Assembly: GCA_964441455.1 (NCBI GenBank)
Contig: CAYTUX010000145.1
Coordinates: forward strand, 1-38,496
Source of the DNA: an uncultured Victivallales bacterium
GTDB lineage: Bacteria > Verrucomicrobiota > Kiritimatiellia > JAQICX01
Direction: 5' to 3'
Length of the DNA: 38,496 bases
In this document: positions 8,519 through 26,248 of the stretch, in pieces
Position numbering within the stretch: the stretch's first letter is position 1
How the letters are laid out: each line of letters opens with the position of its first letter
The notes under the pieces: model-generated
The model's input: the letters and a program-made list of their open reading frames with translations, nothing else
The model's database searches: none
What the model was told of the DNA's origin: nothing
Made by a program: the position numbers and the translations under genes

Positions 8519-8694
8519 GCAAAGTTTAAATTAGCGAGAAATATTGTTTTTATTTAATTGTCTGATGGGTAGAAGGTTATGATGTATAACCGGTAATCAA
8601 ATGTTTGGATATAAACGTTTTTTTAAGTATGTAAAAGATTTTGATGTGTAAGGATTTTATTTTTGGGAATAGTAGAATAGGGAGTAGCAATTGT

Positions 8695-10740
8695 ATGTCG
8701 TTTAGATCAATCGTTTTAGGTTTAGTTTTAGCATTTTTGTTAGTGTTAGGAGGTCATTTTAATGATGTCTATATAGGTCAGACCTATATGGTCGGCAATC
8801 ATTTTCCTATTTTTATTATTGGGGCACTTCTTCTTTTTGTACTTTTTATAAATCCTATTTTAGGTTTGATAAAGAAAAGCTTATGTTTTTCTAAAGCAGA
8901 GCTTGCAATACTTGTAGTTTTACCATTAAGTGTAGCCGTTGTACCCGGTTCCGGTTTTTTAAGGACTTTCACACCGACTATTATTCTGCCGACAAATTAT
9001 TATAATATGACCCCTGCCTGGCAGAAGAACGACGCAATTTCATATTTACCGGAGAACTTAACAGTTAAGCTTACACCTCAAAATGAAGAAGCAGTTTTGG
9101 GAGGATTTCTTCAAGGTTCTGGTGATAAAGCATCGTTTAATGCAGTTCCATGGCAGGATTGGATTACACCGCTAAAAATATGGCTGCCTCTATTTTTTAT
9201 TGTAATGGTTGCTTTAATATGTTTTTCGATGGTGCTTCATCGGCAGTGGTCATCACATGAGCATTTAGTTTATCCTGTTGCCGAATTTGTGCAGTATATT
9301 ACAGTTGAAGATGATTCTTCCAAGCGAAAGTTTTTCAGAGGTATTACAGCTCAGAAGCTTTTCTGGTACGGGGTCATTCCTGTTTTATTGTTTCATGTTG
9401 TAAATGGTATACATGTTTGGTATCCGAATTTCATTCAAATTCCTCGCAGCCTTAATCTTAACGCCCTTCGCGAACTTTTTCCTAATTTAGCAGTTGTTAA
9501 AGACAACTGGACGATTTTCAAACCTGAAATATTCTTTACAGTAATAGCATTTGCATATTTTTTACCTTCAGATATCACACTTAGTCTTGGTACGACTCAG
9601 CTTATCGGAGCCTGGTTTTCAATTTTTCTGACCACTTATGGTATAACAGTTACAAACAAGTATTTTGGTGCCGGAGAGTATCAGGGATTAGCATTTGGTG
9701 CTTATATTGGTCTGTTCGGGATGATTTTGTTTAATGGCAGGGCATATTATTCCAGGGTAGCAATGGCTGCATTCGGTAAAAAGGATAAAGAAGAAAAGCC
9801 CTTAGAGAAATCATCGGTATGGGGATTCAGGATTTTCCTTATTGCGTCCTTTATTTCAATTGCACTTTTATCCAGCATTGGACTTGGTTGGTTTTATGCT
9901 GCCATATTAATGTTTTTATTTGTTCTTATATTCACGGTAATGAGCAGAATTTGTGCAGAGACAGGTCTATTTTTTATTCAGCCCAACTGGTTGCCTGCGG
10001 GTATACTTGTCGGATTTATCGGAGCTGCGGCAATTGGTCCAACCTGTCTTGTTGTCATGACACTAGTATCTATTATTCTTTGTGTTGATCCTAGAGAGTC
10101 ATTAATGCCATTTATTATTAATGCATTTAAGATTTCAGATAATGTTAAAGTTAAGCGATGTCCTTTGGGAGGAATTTTCATTGCACTTTTAGCAATTTCG
10201 TTGATTGCCGGAACAGTAGTTGTTTTATCTTTGCAATATGGTAAAGGAGCAGGTTTACAGGATGCATGGGCAACGCGAATTGTTCCACAAGAGGTTTTCA
10301 AACAATTTTCATCAGCACTTCAGAATATTTCTGCAGATGGAGTTCTTGATAAATCTATTAATATGGGTACATTTGAACGATTATCACTAATAAAGCCCAA
10401 CAAAACTTTTGTTGGTTTTGCAATTACCGGTCTGACATTCTTCCTTATATTTGCATTTTTGAGGATTCGGTTTTCAAAATGGCCATTTCATCCAATCATA
10501 TTCCTTGTATGGTTTTCTTTTCCTATTGCCATGTTTGGTTTCAGTTTTTTTGTTGGATGGCTTATCAAGACAATGATTGTAAAGCTTGGGGGCGGGGATA
10601 CATATCAGCGCAACAAAGCATTTATGGTCGGTATGGTTGCGGGTGATCTTCTTGGTGGATTAATTTTCATGTTAGTTGGTTACATTTATTATCTGGTAAC
10701 AGGTGACTCACCAATGAGATTTCAGATTTTTCCGGGTTAG
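8695..10740 (+). CDS. Polytopic membrane protein, DUF6785/DUF6784-like (OPT-related putative peptide transporter)
   Basis: About 680 aa with roughly 15 or more hydrophobic segments. Motifs VPWQDWITPLKIW, RQW...EHLVYP, WPFHPI, GWLIK..IVKLGG...Y....FMVGMVAGD recalled for this family. Start placed at ATG 8695 (AGGGAG upstream) rather than TTG 8641. Confidence 0.75.
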   Translation: MSFRSIVLGLVLAFLLVLGGHFNDVYIGQTYMVGNHFPIFIIGALLLFVLFINPILGLIKKSLCFSKAELAILVVLPLSVAVVPGSGFLRTFTPTIILPTNYYNMTPAWQKNDAISYLPENLTVKLTPQNEEAVLGGFLQGSGDKASFNAVPWQDWITPLKIWLPLFFIVMVALICFSMVLHRQWSSHEHLVYPVAEFVQYITVEDDSSKRKFFRGITAQKLFWYGVIPVLLFHVVNGIHVWYPNFIQIPRSLNLNALRELFPNLAVVKDNWTIFKPEIFFTVIAFAYFLPSDITLSLGTTQLIGAWFSIFLTTYGITVTNKYFGAGEYQGLAFGAYIGLFGMILFNGRAYYSRVAMAAFGKKDKEEKPLEKSSVWGFRIFLIASFISIALLSSIGLGWFYAAILMFLFVLIFTVMSRICAETGLFFIQPNWLPAGILVGFIGAAAIGPTCLVVMTLVSIILCVDPRESLMPFIINAFKISDNVKVKRCPLGGIFIALLAISLIAGTVVVLSLQYGKGAGLQDAWATRIVPQEVFKQFSSALQNISADGVLDKSINMGTFERLSLIKPNKTFVGFAITGLTFFLIFAFLRIRFSKWPFHPIIFLVWFSFPIAMFGFSFFVGWLIKTMIVKLGGGDTYQRNKAFMVGMVAGDLLGGLIFMLVGYIYYLVTGDSPMRFQIFPG

Positions 10741-12651: not shown

Positions 12652-13440
12652 ATGAGTAGTGAAATAGATAAAATAGAATATAGTGCGGCTGCCAAGACAG
12701 AAGAGGAACGTGCAGTAATTGTCAGGACTTTACGTCTGATTAAAGAGTATCATATAGGTAGTGTTACTACACAAGCATTACGTGGTGTTGATATGGTTAT
12801 ATATCGCGGAGAGATGATTGCAGTTATGGGACCTTCAGGTTCAGGCAAGTCAACCTTTTTTAATATGATTGGGGGTTTAGATTCTCCGTCTAAAGGAAGA
12901 GTATTTATCGATGAAGTTGATGTAGCCCAGTTAAGTGCAGTGGAGCTTGCATTTTTGAGATGCCATAAGATTGGTTATATTTTTCAGAGTTATAACTTGT
13001 TAAGATATATGACAGCTCTTGAAAATGTTACGGCTCCAATGGTATTTGCGGGTGTAACCGAAAAAGAAGCTCAAGAGCGTGGCATGGATTTGTTAGGGTT
13101 AGTAGGTTTGGCAGATCGCTGGCATCACAAACCAATCCAGATGTCCGGTGGACAGCAGCAGCGTGTCGCAATTGCAAGAAGTATGGCAAACAATCCGACA
13201 ATTCTTCTTTGTGATGAGCCTACAGCCAATCTTGACCTGAAAACCGGCAGGGAAATTTTAGATGTTTTAGTGAAGCTTAATAAAGAGCGCTATGTAACAG
13301 TTATATGTGCCACGCATGATCACAGAATGCTTAACATTTGTGATAGAATGATGTGGATTCGTGATGGTCAGATTGACAGAATTAAGACAAGAAATGAAGT
13401 TAAAATTGAAGTTGGTTCTATTGATGGGGAGTTAGAGTAA
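12652..13440 (+). CDS. ABC transporter ATP-binding protein (LolD/MacB-type)
   Basis: Walker A GPSGSGKS, Q-loop FQSYNL, MSGGQQQRVAIAR, Walker B LLCDEPTANLD, H-loop ATHD. Confidence 0.95.
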   Translation: MSSEIDKIEYSAAAKTEEERAVIVRTLRLIKEYHIGSVTTQALRGVDMVIYRGEMIAVMGPSGSGKSTFFNMIGGLDSPSKGRVFIDEVDVAQLSAVELAFLRCHKIGYIFQSYNLLRYMTALENVTAPMVFAGVTEKEAQERGMDLLGLVGLADRWHHKPIQMSGGQQQRVAIARSMANNPTILLCDEPTANLDLKTGREILDVLVKLNKERYVTVICATHDHRMLNICDRMMWIRDGQIDRIKTRNEVKIEVGSIDGELE

Positions 13441-13442
13441 GA

Positions 13443-16400
13443 ATGATAAAATATTTAAACAAAATTTTCAGTAAGTTTATTGTGATAGGGATATTATTTG
13501 GTCTATCTTCTTTTGCACAGGAAGTAACTGTTGATGAAGACAAAAGTAATTTTTTGGAGGGAATTCAAGTATTAACCTCCACACCTCATCGCCTTGGTGG
13601 AACCGAAGAGTTTAATTCAGCAGCAGATTATATTGTTGCAGAGCTGAAGAAAGGCGGATATACGGATGCAAACATAATTGAACAGACATTCTTTTTGCCG
13701 CAAATGCTGACGGAAGCGTCAATTACAGTTGGAGGCAAAGAGTTACCTCTCTATGGTGTACGAGCAAACTTATGGCAGGGATCTTCTTTGGAAAACAATC
13801 AGGTTGAGGCTGAATTGTTTTATGCAGGAGATGGTTCGCCGGAAGCATATGGAGACATTGATCCATTGGGGAAAATAGTATGTTTAAATTATGCTACAGC
13901 ACGAAGATGGCGTGATGCATTTGCTATGGGAGCCAAGGCAGTTATTTTTGTTGATCAGGGTGATACCCCACAGGAATTTGCACGTTATTCACCAATTACA
14001 GCTAATCTTCCGCGTTTTTATTTAACCCGTGATGATTTCAATGCTTTAGGGCTTGAAGATGGAGTTAATAAGGCAACATTGAAATCAAAGCCTGCATGGA
14101 AACGTTTGACTTCAAGAAATATTATTGCATGGTTACCCGGAACCGACCCTGTCTTTGATTTGGAAAAAGAAGAGGTAGCAATTCTGACAGCACAGCTGGA
14201 TAGTTTTGGTGATGTTCCTGAACTTGCAAATGGAGCAACCGGTGCAGCCAACAGCATAGCATTATTGGATTTAGCAAAGAAATTTCAGAATGATAAACCA
14301 AAAAGAAGCATAATGTTTGTTTTTCTTGGCGGAGAGGGGCGTCTTCTTACAGGTTCTCAAAATCTTTATAATGCAATTTTTAGAGATGAGACATTTAAAG
14401 GTTCCAGAATAACACACTCTGAATATTTAGAAAACTATATTAAGGAACAAGAGTTTATAACACAGATGAGAAAAGTTTTGAGGGCAAAGACTTTCTTTGA
14501 TGAATTTACATCTGTTTCCAGACAGGTACTATCTAAACTACGTGATTATACCCAATCTGAAAGTGGTGAGTATACAGATTTAATTAGTGAAGCCAATCTT
14601 TTGAAGATTCGTCTTGAAAAACAGGGAGATGAAGCCAATGCGGCAAAACTGGAGAATATTGAGAATCAGATTGAAGAGTGGAATACTGAAAAGGGAAAAT
14701 GGGACTCTTTAAGAAGAGCAATTGGTAAGCAGAAGCTTGATGAATCTGTTTCAGAGCAGTTAGATACTGTTATTGAGATGATTGATGAGAATCTTGAAGC
14801 CAGATATTATGAAATAGAAAAACTTATAGCTCAGAAAAAGCAGGCAAAACAAATTGCAGAACTTTTAAAAGACAAACATATTATATTCAATCTGTCTATG
14901 GATTTTTCAGGAGACGGACCACTTTGGGGATTCTCCCAGTGGGACTCTGAAGATTATCTTCCTCAGGCGTATTACAACACAGTGGGATATTATGTTAGTG
15001 TGTTTTCCGCGATAGAGAAGACTGCAGATGAACTAGGCTCCAACATAAAATATCTTCAGAAAGGCACAACAAAGATTCGTCTTGGACCTGATATGTTCTT
15101 TCCTGGAAAGAAGATGTATTCCGGCATGATTGCAGCTCGATTCGGTTTGTACGGGCTTCGGGTCGGAACATGTAGTGATGCACTTGTTTATCAGGGACAC
15201 CCTGACGACACATATCTGAACTGTAATGTTGACAAAATTTATGATTTCAGTCAGGATTTTTATACATATGCGAAAACTATGTTTTCAAGTCCAGAGTTCT
15301 CATTACGTCACAGAGTACGTAGAATGGTATCATTTTTAGATTATAAATGGGATGGAGAGCGAGTAAGCGGCAGTACCGCAATGACACGTTCAAAGGGAAG
15401 TGCAATTGCCAACACACCTGCTGCTGGAGCCATGCTCGGTATTGCTTCCCCTAAGATGTACATGGCCGGTTATGATTTGGCGGTCAGAACAGTTGTAGAA
15501 CAGAATGGTTCCTTTGTTCTCGGTCCGGTAGATTACACTAAGCTGCCCAAATCAGATTGGAATATTGTTTTGTTTGACGACGATGGTAAAGTTAATAGTT
15601 GTAATGAGCTTTTAACAACTTTTAATCGAGTTGATATGTTCCCTTGCATATTTAAATCTGTAGTTACAATGTCGCCCCCAAGTTTGACAGGTGCAAAGAC
15701 ATTAATTCTCAATGCAGCAAATGACGGAGGTTTCAGGAGTCAGGATAGTTTTGCGATGGAGACACCTTTTGTGACCTCATCGTTTATGCCTGACTCAGCA
15801 CATGGGGTGAAATATGTTAACAAATTTGGAATGCTGTTGATTAATTCCACAGAAAAAAAACCTTTGGGAGCAGGTTTTCCCGTTGCCGGAAATTTTAATT
15901 TTTCAACCACAAAAGCAACTGCACAAGATAAATTTTCAATAGATGAAAGTCGTTTAGATATTCTAAGAAAGAAAAGAATAACCAATGACTCACTAGAGTG
16001 GCTGCAGGGATTGGCTTCGACAGCACTTGAAAAGGCAGATACTGCAAAAAATATTGCCGCAAAATATGCAGAATATAATACTGCAAATCTTCTTAACAAG
16101 AGGATTTACGCACCGGTTCTTACATCAATGAACGATCTGGTTAAGGCTGTTGTTATTCTTATGATACTTATGATACCATTTGCTTATGCCCTAGAGCGAT
16201 TACTTATTGGTACACCGCATATATATAAACAGATTGGATGGTACTGTTTCTTCTTTATCGTGACATTTGTAATTCTATATAATGTTCATCCGGCCTTTGC
16301 AATTGCGACCGAGCCAATTGTTATTTTTCTGGCATTTTTGATTATAATTCTGTCTTCAATGGTTATTTTTATTTTGTTGAGTCGATTTAAGCAGGAAATC

Positions 16401-18236
16401 AAAGCAGTTCAGGGTATGGAGGTTACAGTACATACAGCAGATGTTTCAAGGTTTAGTACTATTGTTGCGGCAATTGGAATGGGTATCAGTACTATGCGTC
16501 GACGTCCGATGAGAACATTTCTGACAACAATAACAGTTATTTTATTAACATTCAGTATTTTAAGTTTTGCGAGTTTTGATGCACAGGGTGGTATTTTCAA
16601 GCGTCATGTAGGTTCATCTTCAAGTGTTAAGAGTATATTTCTGCATCATCCGGTTTGGAAAACTCTTTCAAACAGAGTTACCGACATTTCCAAGCATATA
16701 ATGAGGGGTATGGGAACAGTTACTGAAAGATATTGGCTTTCAGCGATTGATGCAGCCAGTGCACAGATTTTTTGTGTTCCAATTGCAGACCAATCAGGCG
16801 AGAAGGTTGTTAAACTTGATGCACTGGTCGGACTTGAAACGATGGATGTTTTGGGTCAGCCACAGCTTTTGGCGGCTTTTAAAGGTGATTCTTCATTTGA
16901 GATGGCGGAAGATGCGATATATTTTACAGAGACTACAGTTGAAGCTTTAGGTGTTAGCCCGGGAGACAAGGTTAATGTTATGGGATACACATTCACCTTT
17001 GCCGGAGTATTAGACCAAAACAAGCTAATCAGATTTATTCAGATTGATGATACACCTATATATCCAATTGACTACAATGATGAGTCAATGCAGAAGGATA
17101 CAGGAATGAAACTTTCAGATGAGGGTGATAATGAAGATCTTGACGCTGATTCATCTTTTTTGCCTTACCTGAACTCCTCTGTTGTTGCTTTCGTAAGCTC
17201 AAAAAGAGCAAAAGAACTGAATGGGCGTTTAGTTGCCATTAGTGTGTATCCGAATAAAGGAGTTGATATTGCACCTATTGCCGAAGAGCTTGCAAGACTG
17301 GCTCCTGCACCGGTTTATGCAACACTTGATGATGGAATATATAGACTGTATTTTACAACAATGCTTGCTACTTCCGGGCTGCAGAATATAATTATACCAA
17401 TTATTCTTGGCGGATTAATTATTTTCGGTACAATGTTAGGTTCTGTTACGGATAGAGAAAAAGAGATTTACACATTTAGTGCACTTGGTCTTGCACCGGC
17501 ACATATTGGTATGTTATTTTTTGCCGAGTCATCTGTTTACGCCGTAATAGGTGGTCTTGGCGGCTATATATTTGCCCAGTTAGTGGCAATTTTCGCCTCA
17601 TGGCTGGCCACTTTCACATCAATTCAGATTCCGGAAATGAACTACTCTTCGACAAATGCAATTTTTGCGATTTTAGTTGTTATGGCAACAGTTTTATTGA
17701 GTACAATATACCCTGCATATAGAGGAGCCAAAAGTGCTAATCCCGGAGTTGCCAGAAGTTGGAAAACACCAAAGCCTGACGGTGACAGATGGATATTTAC
17801 ATTCCCATTCACCGTTAGTGAATATGATATAACAGGTGTTATGAGTTTTCTGCTTGAACATTTCAACAACTTCAGTGATTGTTCTCTAGGAATATTTCTT
17901 GCAGAGAACAACAAAGTTACAGCAGATGGAAAACAGCTTACCTTGCAGAGCAATATTGCAACAGCACCATTTGACTTGGGAGTTACACAAGAGTTTAGAA
18001 TTACAAGTGTGCCAAGTGAAATTGAAGGTGTTGATGAAGTGCATATTTCAATTATAAGAGTAAGTGGTACACAAGGAGATTGGCGCAGAACAAACCGGCC
18101 TTTCATTAATGATTTGCGGAAACAGTTTTTGATATGGAGGTCTTTGCCTCCTGAAACAATGGAAGATTACAGAAAGAAAACCCTTGTCATGCTTGGAAGG
18201 GCAAAAGCAGATAAGGAGGTAACAAATAATGGTTAA
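13443..18236 (+). CDS. Fusion protein: signal peptide + PA/M28 peptidase-fold ectodomain + multi-TM region + FtsX-like permease + soluble C-terminal domain
   Basis: Signal-like N-terminus (...SSFA|QE). M28-like HRLGGTEE..AADYI, RNIIAWLPG, TAQLDS, KRSIMFVF. PA-like GKIV...GAKAVIF. FtsX signature GTMLGSVTDREKEIYTFSALGLAP and STIYPA. Confidence 0.82.
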   Translation: MIKYLNKIFSKFIVIGILFGLSSFAQEVTVDEDKSNFLEGIQVLTSTPHRLGGTEEFNSAADYIVAELKKGGYTDANIIEQTFFLPQMLTEASITVGGKELPLYGVRANLWQGSSLENNQVEAELFYAGDGSPEAYGDIDPLGKIVCLNYATARRWRDAFAMGAKAVIFVDQGDTPQEFARYSPITANLPRFYLTRDDFNALGLEDGVNKATLKSKPAWKRLTSRNIIAWLPGTDPVFDLEKEEVAILTAQLDSFGDVPELANGATGAANSIALLDLAKKFQNDKPKRSIMFVFLGGEGRLLTGSQNLYNAIFRDETFKGSRITHSEYLENYIKEQEFITQMRKVLRAKTFFDEFTSVSRQVLSKLRDYTQSESGEYTDLISEANLLKIRLEKQGDEANAAKLENIENQIEEWNTEKGKWDSLRRAIGKQKLDESVSEQLDTVIEMIDENLEARYYEIEKLIAQKKQAKQIAELLKDKHIIFNLSMDFSGDGPLWGFSQWDSEDYLPQAYYNTVGYYVSVFSAIEKTADELGSNIKYLQKGTTKIRLGPDMFFPGKKMYSGMIAARFGLYGLRVGTCSDALVYQGHPDDTYLNCNVDKIYDFSQDFYTYAKTMFSSPEFSLRHRVRRMVSFLDYKWDGERVSGSTAMTRSKGSAIANTPAAGAMLGIASPKMYMAGYDLAVRTVVEQNGSFVLGPVDYTKLPKSDWNIVLFDDDGKVNSCNELLTTFNRVDMFPCIFKSVVTMSPPSLTGAKTLILNAANDGGFRSQDSFAMETPFVTSSFMPDSAHGVKYVNKFGMLLINSTEKKPLGAGFPVAGNFNFSTTKATAQDKFSIDESRLDILRKKRITNDSLEWLQGLASTALEKADTAKNIAAKYAEYNTANLLNKRIYAPVLTSMNDLVKAVVILMILMIPFAYALERLLIGTPHIYKQIGWYCFFFIVTFVILYNVHPAFAIATEPIVIFLAFLIIILSSMVIFILLSRFKQEIKAVQGMEVTVHTADVSRFSTIVAAIGMGISTMRRRPMRTFLTTITVILLTFSILSFASFDAQGGIFKRHVGSSSSVKSIFLHHPVWKTLSNRVTDISKHIMRGMGTVTERYWLSAIDAASAQIFCVPIADQSGEKVVKLDALVGLETMDVLGQPQLLAAFKGDSSFEMAEDAIYFTETTVEALGVSPGDKVNVMGYTFTFAGVLDQNKLIRFIQIDDTPIYPIDYNDESMQKDTGMKLSDEGDNEDLDADSSFLPYLNSSVVAFVSSKRAKELNGRLVAISVYPNKGVDIAPIAEELARLAPAPVYATLDDGIYRLYFTTMLATSGLQNIIIPIILGGLIIFGTMLGSVTDREKEIYTFSALGLAPAHIGMLFFAESSVYAVIGGLGGYIFAQLVAIFASWLATFTSIQIPEMNYSSTNAIFAILVVMATVLLSTIYPAYRGAKSANPGVARSWKTPKPDGDRWIFTFPFTVSEYDITGVMSFLLEHFNNFSDCSLGIFLAENNKVTADGKQLTLQSNIATAPFDLGVTQEFRITSVPSEIEGVDEVHISIIRVSGTQGDWRRTNRPFINDLRKQFLIWRSLPPETMEDYRKKTLVMLGRAKADKEVTNNG

Positions 18237-21029: not shown

Positions 21030-21053
21030 AAACGGGCTATGCCCGTTTTTTTT
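21030..21053 (+). terminator. Rho-independent terminator closing the transporter operon
   Basis: AAACGGGC-TAT-GCCCGTTT hairpin running into a T8 tract. Confidence 0.8.
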
Positions 21054-23485: not shown

Positions 23486-24910
23486 ATGAAGAAAATGGCA
23501 AAAGCAAAAGAAGTTTCATTTGATTGGTCACCCAGGAATGGTTGGGATGGTTTAACAAAACGTGAAGAAAAAGTTTTGGAGAAATATTGTTCTGAATATA
23601 TGGAGTTTTTAAGCAAAGCAAAGACAGAACGTCTTGCATACGATGAATCTGTAAAGCTTGCTGAAGCTTATGGGTATATGAATATATCCTCAAAAAAGAA
23701 GCTTAACCCCGGCGACAAAATATATATTGGTTTCAATGGTAAGACAATCATGCTTATGAGCATCGGCAGGACACCTTTAACTGATGGTTTAAGAATTGTC
23801 GGCGGGCATACAGATGCACCTCGTTTGGACTCCAAACCTGTTCCGCTGTATGAAGACGGCGATGTTGTTCTTTTAGATACCAGTTACTATGGCGGAATCA
23901 GAAAATATCATTGGGTATCCTCAACTCTTGCAATACATGGCGTAGTTATCAAGCAGGATGGTTCAAAAGTTGATATTGCAATCGGCGAAGATATAACCGA
24001 TCCAATCTTTACAATAACAGATTTGCTTCCACATCTTGCCGCAAAGCAATCAAAAAAACCTTTAGCAACAGCAATCACAGGCGAGGGGCTAAATGTTCTT
24101 GTCGGCAGCAGACCGATTGACAAAAAATCAGATAAAAATAAACATCCTATTAAGGACAATATACTAAAGATTCTTAATGAAAAGTATGGCATTACGGAAG
24201 AGGATTTTGTAAGTTCAGAGCTTGAAATTGTTCCATCCGGACCGGCAAGAGAAGTTGGATTTGACAGATCCATGATTGGTGGATACGGACATGACGACAG
24301 GGTGTGTGCATATGCAGGATTAAGAGCAGCCCTTGATATGGAAGAGATTCCGGAATACACCTCTGTTGTGCTTATGTGTGACAAAGAAGAGATTGGTTCA
24401 GAAGGTAATACCGGTATGAACTCATTTTTCTTTGAAAATGCAGTTGCAGAAGTTCTTGCTCTTGAAAATTCAAAGTCAACCAATCTTAACGTTCGTCGCT
24501 GTCTGAGTCGCTCAAAAATGTTATCTGCAGATGTCTGCTGTCTGCATGATCCTAACTATCCTGATGTAAGTGCACCAAACGGAAATATGGCTAAAATGAA
24601 TCATGGATGTGTTTTAGTTAAATATACAGGTAGCAGAGGCAAAAATGGTGGTTCAGATGCCGGTGCAGAATTTGTCGGAGAAATACGAAAAATATTTAAT
24701 GACGCAAAAGTTTGCTGGCAGACAGGATTGATTGGCAAGGTTGATGAAGGTGGGGGTGGTACAATCTCTAAATTCATGGCAAGATATGGGATGGAAGTTA
24801 TTGATTGTGGAGTAGGGCTTTTTGGAATGCATTCGACATTTGAGGTTGCCGGTAAAATTGATATTTATATGACATACAAAGGATATAAAGCGTTTCTTGA
24901 AAACAAATGA
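23486..24910 (+). CDS. M18 family aminopeptidase (ApeA/aminopeptidase 1-like)
   Basis: KTER, GHTDAPRL, YYGGI, GHDDRVC, DKEEIGS, SADV, GGGGTI, MHS: full set of metal-ligand motifs. The start may be at 23495. Confidence 0.92.
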   Translation: MKKMAKAKEVSFDWSPRNGWDGLTKREEKVLEKYCSEYMEFLSKAKTERLAYDESVKLAEAYGYMNISSKKKLNPGDKIYIGFNGKTIMLMSIGRTPLTDGLRIVGGHTDAPRLDSKPVPLYEDGDVVLLDTSYYGGIRKYHWVSSTLAIHGVVIKQDGSKVDIAIGEDITDPIFTITDLLPHLAAKQSKKPLATAITGEGLNVLVGSRPIDKKSDKNKHPIKDNILKILNEKYGITEEDFVSSELEIVPSGPAREVGFDRSMIGGYGHDDRVCAYAGLRAALDMEEIPEYTSVVLMCDKEEIGSEGNTGMNSFFFENAVAEVLALENSKSTNLNVRRCLSRSKMLSADVCCLHDPNYPDVSAPNGNMAKMNHGCVLVKYTGSRGKNGGSDAGAEFVGEIRKIFNDAKVCWQTGLIGKVDEGGGGTISKFMARYGMEVIDCGVGLFGMHSTFEVAGKIDIYMTYKGYKAFLENK

Positions 24911-25039: not shown

Positions 25040-26248
25040 ATGAACAGACCACATGATTTATTGGAATGGGAGTGCTTGGTTCCTGAAAAAGGAAATTTTG
25101 CATTTGGATATTATGATCGATTTGCTTGGAATCAATCGGATACTCTGCATCTTGCACTCAAAATGCCGCAGCAGATCAGACTTCCTGAAGTTGATGAAAC
25201 TGCGGAATTGGGTTACATCAAGGACAAGAAATTTGTTAAATTGACCGAGACAAAAGCCTGGTGTCATCAACAAGGATGTATGTCGGTCTTTTTAAATGAT
25301 TCCGAAATTATCTATAATGATGTTGATAATTCAACCGGAAAAGTTATTTCCAAAGTATATAATTTAGATACTCATGAAATTAAGCCATGGGGTGATATGA
25401 TTTATACAATATCCTTGGACTGCACAAAAGTTGCAACACTTGATATTGGACGTATTCCTCGTAGAGGCTACAGTTATGCTTCATCACCGTTGCCTGAAAC
25501 AGCTTTGCCTGTAAATCCAGCAAACGAAGGTCTTTTCATTGTTGATGTTGCAACAAAAGAGAAAAGGCTGATTTTAAGTTATCAGCAGTGTATTGATATG
25601 CACCCTTATCCTTGGGATAAAGAGGGGCAAATGTTCTGGATGAACCATGCAATCTTCAATTGCGATGGAAGCAAGATTCTTGTACTATTCAGGCATACTT
25701 TAAATACCTCTGAACGTTCCGGTGCATGGTGGAGAACGCATATGTTTACTCTTGATGTTGATGGTGGAAATGTCAAGTGTGTGCTTCCTGATGTTTTCTG
25801 GAAAAATGGTGGAATTACTCACCAGATCTGGGGAAGTAAGCCAAACGATGTTCTTGTTGATGCCAACTGGACACATACAGGAAATCATCAGGTGATTGTT
25901 GATGACAGAACTTTTCCTGATAGTCCTGCTCAATTAGTTTCCAAGGGGGCAAATAGGGGAGCACATCTTTTGTACTCTCCTGACGGCAAGTGGATAGCAG
26001 GGGATTCTTATCCTAATGATGGGAAACAGACGTTGACGCTGACCAAGGTTGAGACTGGTGAGTGTAAGATTATAGGTGTTTTCAATCATAATACTCCGAA
26101 TGTTGTAGGGGATATGAGGTGCGATCTGCATCCTAGATGGAATCATGCTGGTGATTACCTGACTGTTGATACCATCCATAAAGGTCCAAGAAAGATTTAT
26201 GGATTATCAATGAAGAAAGTATTCGAGTCATATTCCACACTCATATGA
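25040..26248 (+). CDS. Beta-propeller protein, TolB/oligogalacturonate-lyase-like, function unknown
   Basis: FGYYD, AW..QQG, NH..FN.DG, H..YSPDGKWI..DSYP and RCDLHPRW blade motifs. No evident signal peptide. Confidence 0.7.
   Translation: MNRPHDLLEWECLVPEKGNFAFGYYDRFAWNQSDTLHLALKMPQQIRLPEVDETAELGYIKDKKFVKLTETKAWCHQQGCMSVFLNDSEIIYNDVDNSTGKVISKVYNLDTHEIKPWGDMIYTISLDCTKVATLDIGRIPRRGYSYASSPLPETALPVNPANEGLFIVDVATKEKRLILSYQQCIDMHPYPWDKEGQMFWMNHAIFNCDGSKILVLFRHTLNTSERSGAWWRTHMFTLDVDGGNVKCVLPDVFWKNGGITHQIWGSKPNDVLVDANWTHTGNHQVIVDDRTFPDSPAQLVSKGANRGAHLLYSPDGKWIAGDSYPNDGKQTLTLTKVETGECKIIGVFNHNTPNVVGDMRCDLHPRWNHAGDYLTVDTIHKGPRKIYGLSMKKVFESYSTLI

Follow-up and report, generated by a model that had tools for sequence, protein, structure and literature searches.

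Introduction

What is the role of a protein that has the fold of a zinc aminopeptidase on its extracytoplasmic side, appears to have lost the residues by which such enzymes hold zinc, and runs on into the permease of an ATP-binding cassette (ABC) system? This question is raised by an open reading frame (ORF) at positions 13443-18236 of the plus strand in a stretch of 38,496 nucleotides (nt), here called the window, of contig CAYTUX010000145.1 (GenBank assembly GCA_964441455.1) from an uncultured Victivallales bacterium. The codon frame is without interruption and encodes a protein of 1597 residues, the target of this study. An earlier note on this DNA had described the interval 13443..16140 as an M28-fold ectodomain of about 900 residues, catalytically dead and wired as a receptor to an FtsX-type mechanotransducer. 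This interval covers residues 1-899 only, whereas the ORF ends at 18236; it therefore encodes no more than the N-terminal, periplasmic ectodomain of a far longer protein of the inner membrane.

The description of the target as a "dead enzyme on a mechanotransducer" is well supported by the evidence discussed below, and its ectodomain may act as a receptor. Such a protein would be a bacterial, transporter-fused addition to the few M28-fold pseudo-enzymes, among them the transferrin receptor and nicastrin, and would bring a new accessory module to the type VII ABC systems. In addition, it points to an uncharacterised envelope process in bacteria that are hard to culture, mainly Kiritimatiellae, Lentisphaerae, Verrucomicrobia and Planctomycetes.

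Fold of the Ectodomain

A hydropathy scan gave a signal-like N-terminus and then no hydrophobic stretch before about residue 890, followed by three membrane helices (890-984), the first transmembrane helix (TM1) of the FtsX type (1023-1047), a loop of 260 residues, the last three helices (1308-1426) and a tail of about 170 residues. In the part before the membrane, the Pfam family Peptidase_M28 (PF04389) matches residues 226-310 with 32.6 bits against a cut-off of 21.3. The match is partial (profile positions 1-78 of 193) because a helical insertion splits the domain; this insertion, residues 323-476, sits between the strand of the EE motif and that of the NxD motif, and canonical M28 enzymes are without it. 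The Pfam PA (protease-associated) domain is matched weakly at residues 123-201 (E 0.084), and Nicastrin (PF05450) stays below its gathering score (14.5 bits, cut-off 25). Furthermore, a profile of the family searched against PDB sequences found 2ek8 (E 1.3e-18), BSAP (2.8e-15) and nicastrin (1.7e-6), and also 3iib and PaAP. A phmmer search with the single sequence of residues 1-899 against PDB sequences gave three matches of E 0.02-0.03, all in the helical insertion, which were judged spurious.

An AlphaFold2 model of residues 30-890, built from an alignment with 64 relatives that were picked from 162 for good coverage of the ectodomain, has a mean predicted local distance difference test score (pLDDT) of 94.2 and a predicted template modelling score (pTM) of 0.93. 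When the PDB was searched with this model by Foldseek, PA-domain M28 aminopeptidases came out at the top (2ek8, E 3.1e-18; BSAP 6hc7, 1.4e-16), with the transferrin receptor, PaAP and GCPII ranking behind these two. The VIA structure search, which is independent of Foldseek, matched the Aeromonas aminopeptidase 1rtq (Z 26.3, root-mean-square deviation (rmsd) 2.8 Å, 257/291 residues aligned), the Aneurinibacillus AM-1 aminopeptidase 2ek8 (Z 25.7, 378/412 residues aligned), the transferrin receptor 7zqs (Z 25.6, 382 residues aligned), the Streptomyces griseus aminopeptidase 1cp7 (Z 25.3), glutaminyl cyclases (Z 22.5-24.8), GCPII 4mcp (Z 21.2) and the glycosylphosphatidylinositol (GPI) transamidase chains 7wld_G (Z 17.8) and 7w72_A (Z 17.7). 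This series includes the superpositions on the Aeromonas and Streptomyces aminopeptidases and on PSMA (as GCPII) that the earlier note had proposed as a check. These structural matches bear on the M28 core and the PA domain, and the beta domain (626-795) and the stalk are barely covered by them. The relation to M28 is far beyond what chance would give, and the ectodomain is thus predicted, from profile and model alike, to have a PA-domain M28 fold, with an M28 core that carries the PA insertion, as the earlier note had supposed for the M28 part.

The Metal Site

The zinc ligands of canonical M28 enzymes are the His of HxD, the bridging Asp of GAxD, the second Glu of EE, the Asp of NxD and the His of HTxxDT, and the first Glu of EE is the general base. 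In the target, the strings that the earlier note had read at four of these motifs are all found at the residues it gave, namely QLD at 251-253 (nt 14193-14201), GATGAANS at 264-271, GGEG at 296-299 and YQGHPDDT at 583-590. Residue equivalences were derived from profile-to-PDB alignments (2ek8, BSAP, 3iib and PaAP) and from an hhalign alignment to an ordinary M28 peptidase of 403 amino acids (aa) encoded in the same genome (contig C290, 904-2115), in which HYD, GAGDNASG, EE, NMDD and HSPEDT are intact; the organism therefore keeps an intact-looking M28 gene beside the dead one.

In the profile-to-PDB alignments, the His and the Asp of HxD fall on Q251 and D253, respectively, and in four distinct solved M28 enzymes the two Glu of EE, the first of which is the general base, fall on E298 and G299. 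The YHHTPNDT of 3iib is aligned to the family stretch r-e-g-t-P-a-D-T, and therefore the position of the canonical His ligand is G585, and H586 stands for the Thr that follows it. The late motif is accordingly degenerate, as the earlier note had said, with the added detail that its His lies one residue on, at the Thr/Ser position. The alignment to the genome's own M28 peptidase likewise sets Q251 against the His and G585 against the His of IHSPEDT, and in it the bridging Asp faces a gap of just one residue (GAT-GAANS against GAGDNASGT). This alignment moves the EE register by one, so that E298 can then be read as the ligand Glu; in whichever register, at most one Glu of the pair is left, in agreement with the single Glu298 of the earlier note. 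For the third M28 segment, hhalign in local mode gave E 0.031 and is usable only around P-x-D-T. The fifth ligand position, the Asp of NxD, which the earlier note had not listed, is S485; it was assigned by eye, from the motif and from where the matching strand of the model ends (FNLSMD), because no alignment reached the NxD stretch reliably. Consequently, as far as sequence comparison can tell, all five canonical ligand positions hold non-ligands (Q251, G267, G299, S485 and G585), three of them Gly, and the loss of the M28 zinc ligands claimed earlier is borne out and extended by one position.

Loss of the Ligands across the Family

A word-indexed search gave 13 clusters at 90% identity including the target itself, all of similar length, and a HMMER search with the ectodomain gave 1177 representatives at E<=1e-3, 770 at E<=1e-10 and 130 at E<=1e-30. 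The family alignment comprises the first 1100 residues of 162 relatives, that is, the best 150 of the HMMER matches, further relatives from the word search and the query, with two neighbour proteins and a self-duplicate left out. Among these 162, 84 are 1600-1799 aa long, and 115 have at least 1400 aa and are called long members hereafter.

None of the canonical ligands is kept in 100 of the 162 proteins, one in 59, two in 2 and three in 1, and no protein keeps four or five; if a register error of one residue is allowed, the maximum is still three (2/162). H251 and D267 never occur together (0/162), nor does the EE pair (0/162). In the long members, position 251 (the His ligand) is occupied by P 27, N 16, H 15, Q 11 and A 11 times, position 267 (the bridging Asp) by G 39, D 19 and N 10, position 299 (the Glu ligand) by A 61, G 16 and Y 11 but never by E, and position 485 (the Asp ligand) by S 52, T 19, A 12 and D 11. 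At position 585, the last His ligand, Gly is found in 121 of all 162 relatives. Scaffold residues of the same motifs are kept, on the other hand, in nearly all of the 115 long members: D253 in 112, G304 in 115, P587 in 106 and D589 in 101. A scaffold that is kept while the ligand positions vary freely is the usual signature of a pseudo-enzyme, and the loss of zinc ligands, which the earlier note had suggested checking in orthologues, is family-wide. Within the ectodomain, conservation is highest in the old active-site stretch, residues 216-322, where 14 of 107 columns are conserved at 90% or more.

Columns of H, D, E or C conserved at 75% or more are sparse in residues 30-890, only nine being found (H49, E244, D253, E335, E457, H483, D589, D712 and D829), and a non-canonical metal site made of other residues is therefore unlikely on the evidence of the alignment. 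Moreover, the family is maintained rather than decaying, because it comprises 130 representative clusters at E<=1e-30 and 144 genome loci. Since the target fails the defining catalytic feature of M28, it should not be given the name of an M28 peptidase; for the family as a whole, too, this label is very probably in error. The warning in the earlier note that an automatic label would mislead was apt: of the public names in the 13 clusters, one reads "M28 family peptidase [Kiritimatiellae bacterium]" and another "FtsX-like permease".

The Membrane Half

The C-terminal half is, by all the features examined, an FtsX/MacB/LolCE-type permease, that is, one of the type VII ABC systems, with four helices and a large periplasmic domain between TM1 and TM2. 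Pfam FtsX (PF02687) matches residues 1318-1430 with 38 bits (cut-off 25.5). For residues 880-1597, an AlphaFold2 model based on 60 relatives (pLDDT 85.4, pTM 0.69) shows the stalk helix running into three helices, then an amphipathic helix and TM1, a periplasmic domain of mixed alpha/beta structure, another three helices, and a C-terminal domain of a beta-sheet plus helices. In residue numbers, the permease consists of the amphipathic helix and TM1 (991-1047), a periplasmic domain of the Porter/Sabre type (1048-1307) and TM2-4 (1308-1430). Among the best Foldseek matches of this model are MacB 5gko (E 1.1e-10), LolCDE 9rld (E 2e-10) and the pneumococcal MacB-like 5xu1, and VIA gave YtrF (Z 17.0), 5xu1 (Z 15.8), MacB (Z 15.4), FtsX (Z 15.3) and the isolated periplasmic domain of MacB, 3ftj (Z 11.5, rmsd 4.7 Å, 175 aligned). 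The link to an FtsX-type permease that the earlier note had proposed is therefore a covalent fusion, found by Pfam, Foldseek and VIA, with LolD-type ATPase genes on both sides of the target.

The MacB-type alignments start only at about model residue 119-132, and therefore the three preceding helices are without counterpart in the known type VII permeases. In these three extra helices (891-990), 28 of 100 columns are conserved at 90% or more; conserved charged or polar residues in them are E918, R919, H926, H949 and E957. The OPT-like partner, described below, could dock on these helices, or they could form a functional site within the membrane. A complex prediction of this partner with target residues 815-1000, that is, the stalk and the extra helices, scored 0.31 against a mark of 0.32, the controls scoring 0.00, which speaks neither for nor against such a contact. 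The cytoplasmic domain (1431-1597), with 52 of 155 columns conserved at 90% or more, ranks with the best-conserved regions of the protein and is absent from MacB and LolC. Its VIA matches to helix-grip, START, AHSA1 and KA1-like folds are marginal (Z 7-8, the range of common arrangements), so that the domain was assigned to no fold, and an Atlas look-up of the domain gave no usable match.

The Operon and Its Conservation

The target belongs to an operon of seven genes on the same strand, which lie 2-43 nt apart or overlap (Table 1). Both ATPases match best the LolD, MacB, DarD and YbbA models, with scores under the equivalog cut-offs. The gene whose start overlaps the stop of the target by 8 nt encodes a divergent permease of the oligopeptide transporter (OPT) family. 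The copy in the window is under the Pfam cut-off (18.8 against 25.8 bits), and 34 of 43 OPT-like proteins match Pfam OPT at E<=0.01, the best at 1.3e-16; this set of 43 consists of the window copy and of proteins from 42 loci, which remained of 44 filtered ones after two with internal stops had been dropped. A profile of this partner family matched no solved structure by sequence. Compared with the DUF6785 family by hhalign, the OPT-like family gave a probability of 5% and E 0.0075 over 137 columns, and BLASTP between the two copies in the window was insignificant.

PqqD-like proteins are of a peptide-chaperone type that is seen in pathways for ribosomally synthesized and post-translationally modified peptides (RiPPs); no gene for a precursor peptide or a modifying enzyme was seen near the PqqD-like gene of the operon. 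A promoter scan gave 51 sites, with 50.2 in shuffled sequence, that is, no excess. At 23486-24910, downstream of the terminator-like hairpin by 2.5 kb, is a gene for an M18 aminopeptidase (Pfam E 1.1e-82), and an ORF of 402 aa at 25040-26248 has no Pfam match at E<=0.001.

Table 1. Features of the target protein and its operon in the window, and occurrence of the neighbouring genes among eligible loci.
Feature	Position	Strand	Basis	Occurrence
DUF6785 + DUF6784 membrane protein, 699 aa, first gene of operon	8641..10740	+	Pfam E 2.2e-85	upstream in 33/45; downstream instead in 3 more
PqqD-like small protein, 134 aa	10758..11162	+	Pfam PqqD 24.1 bits, cut-off 23.4	at least 19/45 (lower bound; small divergent protein)
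Second FtsX-type permease, 500 aa	11134..12636	+	Pfam FtsX 59.4 bits	upstream in 56/57
LolD/MacB-type ABC ATPase, 262 aa, ending 2 nt before target	12652..13440	+	model matches	upstream in 57/59
Target, residues 1-26: putative Sec-type signal peptide or membrane anchor	13443..13520	+	hydropathy; Lys-rich start, hydrophobic core, SFA/QE cleavage site by eye	
Target, residues 30-120: M28-like core part 1, conserved PHRLxGT motif	13530..13802	+	AlphaFold2 model, VIA, conservation; approximate boundary	
Target, residues ~121-215: PA (apical) domain inserted in M28 fold	13803..14087	+	weak Pfam PA, structural matches	
Target, residues 216-322: M28 core part 2, with Q251, D253, G267, E298, G299	14088..14408	+	Pfam PF04389, alignments, family tallies	
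Target, residues 323-476: family-specific helical insertion of ~150 residues, four long helices	14409..14870	+	DSSP of model	
Target, residues 477-625: M28 core part 3, with S485, G585, H586	14871..15317	+	alignments; S485 by eye	
Target, residues ~626-795: beta-rich domain	15318..15827	+	AlphaFold2 model	
Target, residues ~796-890: three-helix stalk into membrane	15828..16112	+	models	
Target, residues 891-990: three extra transmembrane helices	16113..16412	+	hydropathy, model, structural alignments, conservation	
Target, residues 991-1430: MacB/LolCE/FtsX-type permease module	16413..17732	+	Pfam FtsX, Foldseek, VIA	
Target, residues 1431-1597: cytoplasmic alpha/beta domain	17733..18236	+	conservation, model	
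Divergent OPT-family permease, 667 aa	18229..20232	+	Pfam OPT (PF03169)	directly downstream in 66/66
Second LolD/MacB-type ABC ATPase, 245 aa	20276..21013	+	model matches	downstream in 55/57
Terminator-like hairpin and T run, likely operon end	21030..21048	+	pattern match only	

A scan of species-representative genomes found 144 loci that encode relatives of the target, and the comparisons of loci and taxa rest on the best 80 of these. They belong to metagenome-assembled genomes of Kiritimatiellae, Lentisphaerae, Verrucomicrobia and Planctomycetota, to single representatives of Sumerlaeia, Fibrobacterota and Blastochloridaceae, and to several organisms named only "uncultured bacterium"; the operon is thus conserved mainly across bacteria of the Planctomycetes-Verrucomicrobia-Chlamydiae (PVC) group. 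The occurrences in Table 1 were counted by tblastn with the neighbour proteins of the window, under thresholds of distance and score set for this analysis, at loci with enough flanking DNA only.

The genome that contains the window has one copy of the ectodomain. A weak M28 match on contig C99 was considered as a second copy and rejected, since the protein of 453 aa looks by eye like an ordinary M20-type dipeptidase. In addition, a second cassette, on a contig of 7.2 kb (C146, 1-7238), has the same kinds of genes in another order, namely those for a 5'-truncated paralogue of TM2-4 and the cytoplasmic domain of the target (33% identity, E 4e-42; the contig ends before the N-terminus of this paralogue), an OPT-like protein (708 aa), a short FtsX protein (347 aa), a PqqD-like protein and two ABC ATPases.

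Proposed Function and Alternatives

In type VII ABC systems, the binding and hydrolysis of ATP in the cytoplasm move periplasmic domains, and no substrate is carried through the permease. It is rather probable, in our judgement, that the dead M28 module of the target is the working head of such a machine, which holds a ligand or a partner and is moved by the motor. The LolD-type ATPases encoded on either side would, to judge from their family membership, power mechanotransmission through the permease, the motion would shift the dead peptidase module in the periplasm, and the old substrate cleft or another surface would hold the ligand or partner. An ATP-driven type VII ABC that works via helices on a regulatory domain of a peptidase fold (LytM) has a precedent in FtsEX-EnvC (PMC7668044). 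The most likely ligand would be a peptide-like molecule that is handled together with the OPT-family permease, and its passage to or from this permease is the most specific guess because the permease is the invariable and translationally coupled neighbour of the target.

Several points weigh against a ligand-holding dead module. No ligand, precursor-peptide gene or partner enzyme was identified in this analysis. The assignment of S485 was made by eye rather than from an alignment, E298 at the position of the general base is kept in the clade of the target, H586 adjoins the position of the lost His, and H483 is kept in 97 of the 115 long relatives, although the target has Asn there. Furthermore, conservation is lower in the ectodomain than in the membrane and cytoplasmic parts (mean majority fraction 0.31-0.52 and 0.66-0.73, respectively), and a scaffold role would fit this too.

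A regulator like EnvC is a possible, though doubtful, alternative. The dead M28 module and the helical insertion might bind, instead of a small ligand, a separate periplasmic enzyme and switch it on, or hold it, when the ABC motor fires. The architecture offers a parallel, in that a peptidase-fold domain, long helices and an FtsX-type permease are combined, and there is a precedent for the mechanism: in FtsEX-EnvC, the motion goes via a coiled coil to the LytM-fold domain, which then binds and activates amidases (PMC7668044). YbbAP-TesA is described as a type VII ABC-hydrolase complex (PMC12646458) and so pairs another type VII ABC with a hydrolase. However, no hydrolase gene is conserved in the operon among the compared loci, the constant partners being the OPT-like and DUF6785 membrane proteins, and the helical insertion is the least conserved region of the target, with a mean majority fraction of 0.31.

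A fuller form of the ligand-holding reading would make the whole cassette of seven genes a new kind of envelope machine, in which a type VII ABC motor bears a dead aminopeptidase that captures peptide termini or another envelope ligand in the periplasm and hands them to, or gates, permeases of the OPT fold, and the PqqD-like protein chaperones the peptide on the cytoplasmic side; we consider it unlikely in this complete form. The OPT transporter family is regarded as driven by the proton-motive force alone. No described link between OPT permeases and an ABC motor was found in the literature searched, and such a capture-and-hand-over machine, if real, would mean ATP-assisted traffic through the OPT family.

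The M28 module might also be structural, a dimerising or spacing scaffold that places the machine in the periplasm or is in contact with the outer membrane or the cell wall, and would then bind no specific ligand. The transferrin receptor, whose ectodomain dimerises, is among the best structural matches (Z 25.6), and the moderate conservation of the ectodomain mentioned above agrees with such a role. Against it, the old active-site stretch is the best-conserved part of the ectodomain, and a PA-M28 module of 590 residues is a costly spacer to keep across phyla, so that a purely structural module seems quite unlikely.

That the target is still an enzyme, with a remodelled site that uses E298, H586 and other residues with one metal or none, is highly improbable. 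E298 stands at the position of the general base and H586 beside that of the lost His, and glutaminyl cyclases are built on the same fold, which therefore supports more than one chemistry. Position 298, however, has Q 39, E 23, H 23 and R 12, and position 586 has H 41, T 35, Q 19 and L 12 in the 115 long members (H 44, T 43 and Q 27 at 586 in all 162); because the residues vary in this way across the relatives, the two positions are unlikely to be catalytic, and three of the ligand positions are Gly in the target. An artefact or a decaying gene, that is, a chance frame or a dying fusion, can be practically dismissed in view of 1597 uninterrupted codons, relatives of similar length and confident models for both halves.

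Comparison with Known Systems

No description was found in the literature searched, judged partly by titles and the beginnings of abstracts, of this family or of the combination of a fused dead M28 head, three extra helices, a cytoplasmic domain, two ATPases and OPT-like partners. The partner proteins are related to the OPT oligopeptide transporter family (PF03169), whose profile is matched by orthologues of the partner, with the copy of the window itself under the cut-off.

The target descends from the PA-domain M28 aminopeptidases, which are its closest relatives by sequence profile and by structure (2ek8, Bacillus subtilis YwaD/BSAP 6hc6 and Pseudomonas PaAP 8ac7, with a core as in 1rtq) and have the same fold with the PA domain inserted in the M28 core. 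It has kept from them the Asp of HxD, the PGA turn, the Gly of GLxGS and the P-x-D-T turn. Unlike them, it has lost the five zinc ligands, has gained the helical insertion of about 150 residues, the beta domain and the stalk, and is tethered to the membrane rather than secreted.

Transferrin receptor 1, nicastrin and the M28-like subunit of GPI transamidase are M28-fold proteins in non-catalytic roles. They share with the target an M28 fold, in part with PA, without peptidase chemistry on a membrane-anchored protein, whereas the target is bacterial and fused to an ABC-type permease, and common descent with the transferrin receptor and nicastrin is shown only at the level of the M28 clan.

The membrane half resembles the type VII ABC systems MacB, LolCDE, FtsEX-EnvC, YtrEF, HrtBA and YbbAP-TesA in the same four helices, the Porter/Sabre domain between TM1 and TM2 and the adjacent genes for LolD/MacB-type ATPases. 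The likeness to FtsEX-EnvC goes further, to a peptidase-fold domain with long helices on the periplasmic side. In contrast to these systems, however, the peptidase-fold module of the target is fused to the permease and is of the M28 and not the LytM fold, the protein has, beyond the permease, three more helices in the membrane and a cytoplasmic domain at its C-terminus, all of them conserved, and in a single operon it is accompanied by another permease, by two ATPases that differ from each other and by two membrane proteins of the OPT-like or DUF6785 type.

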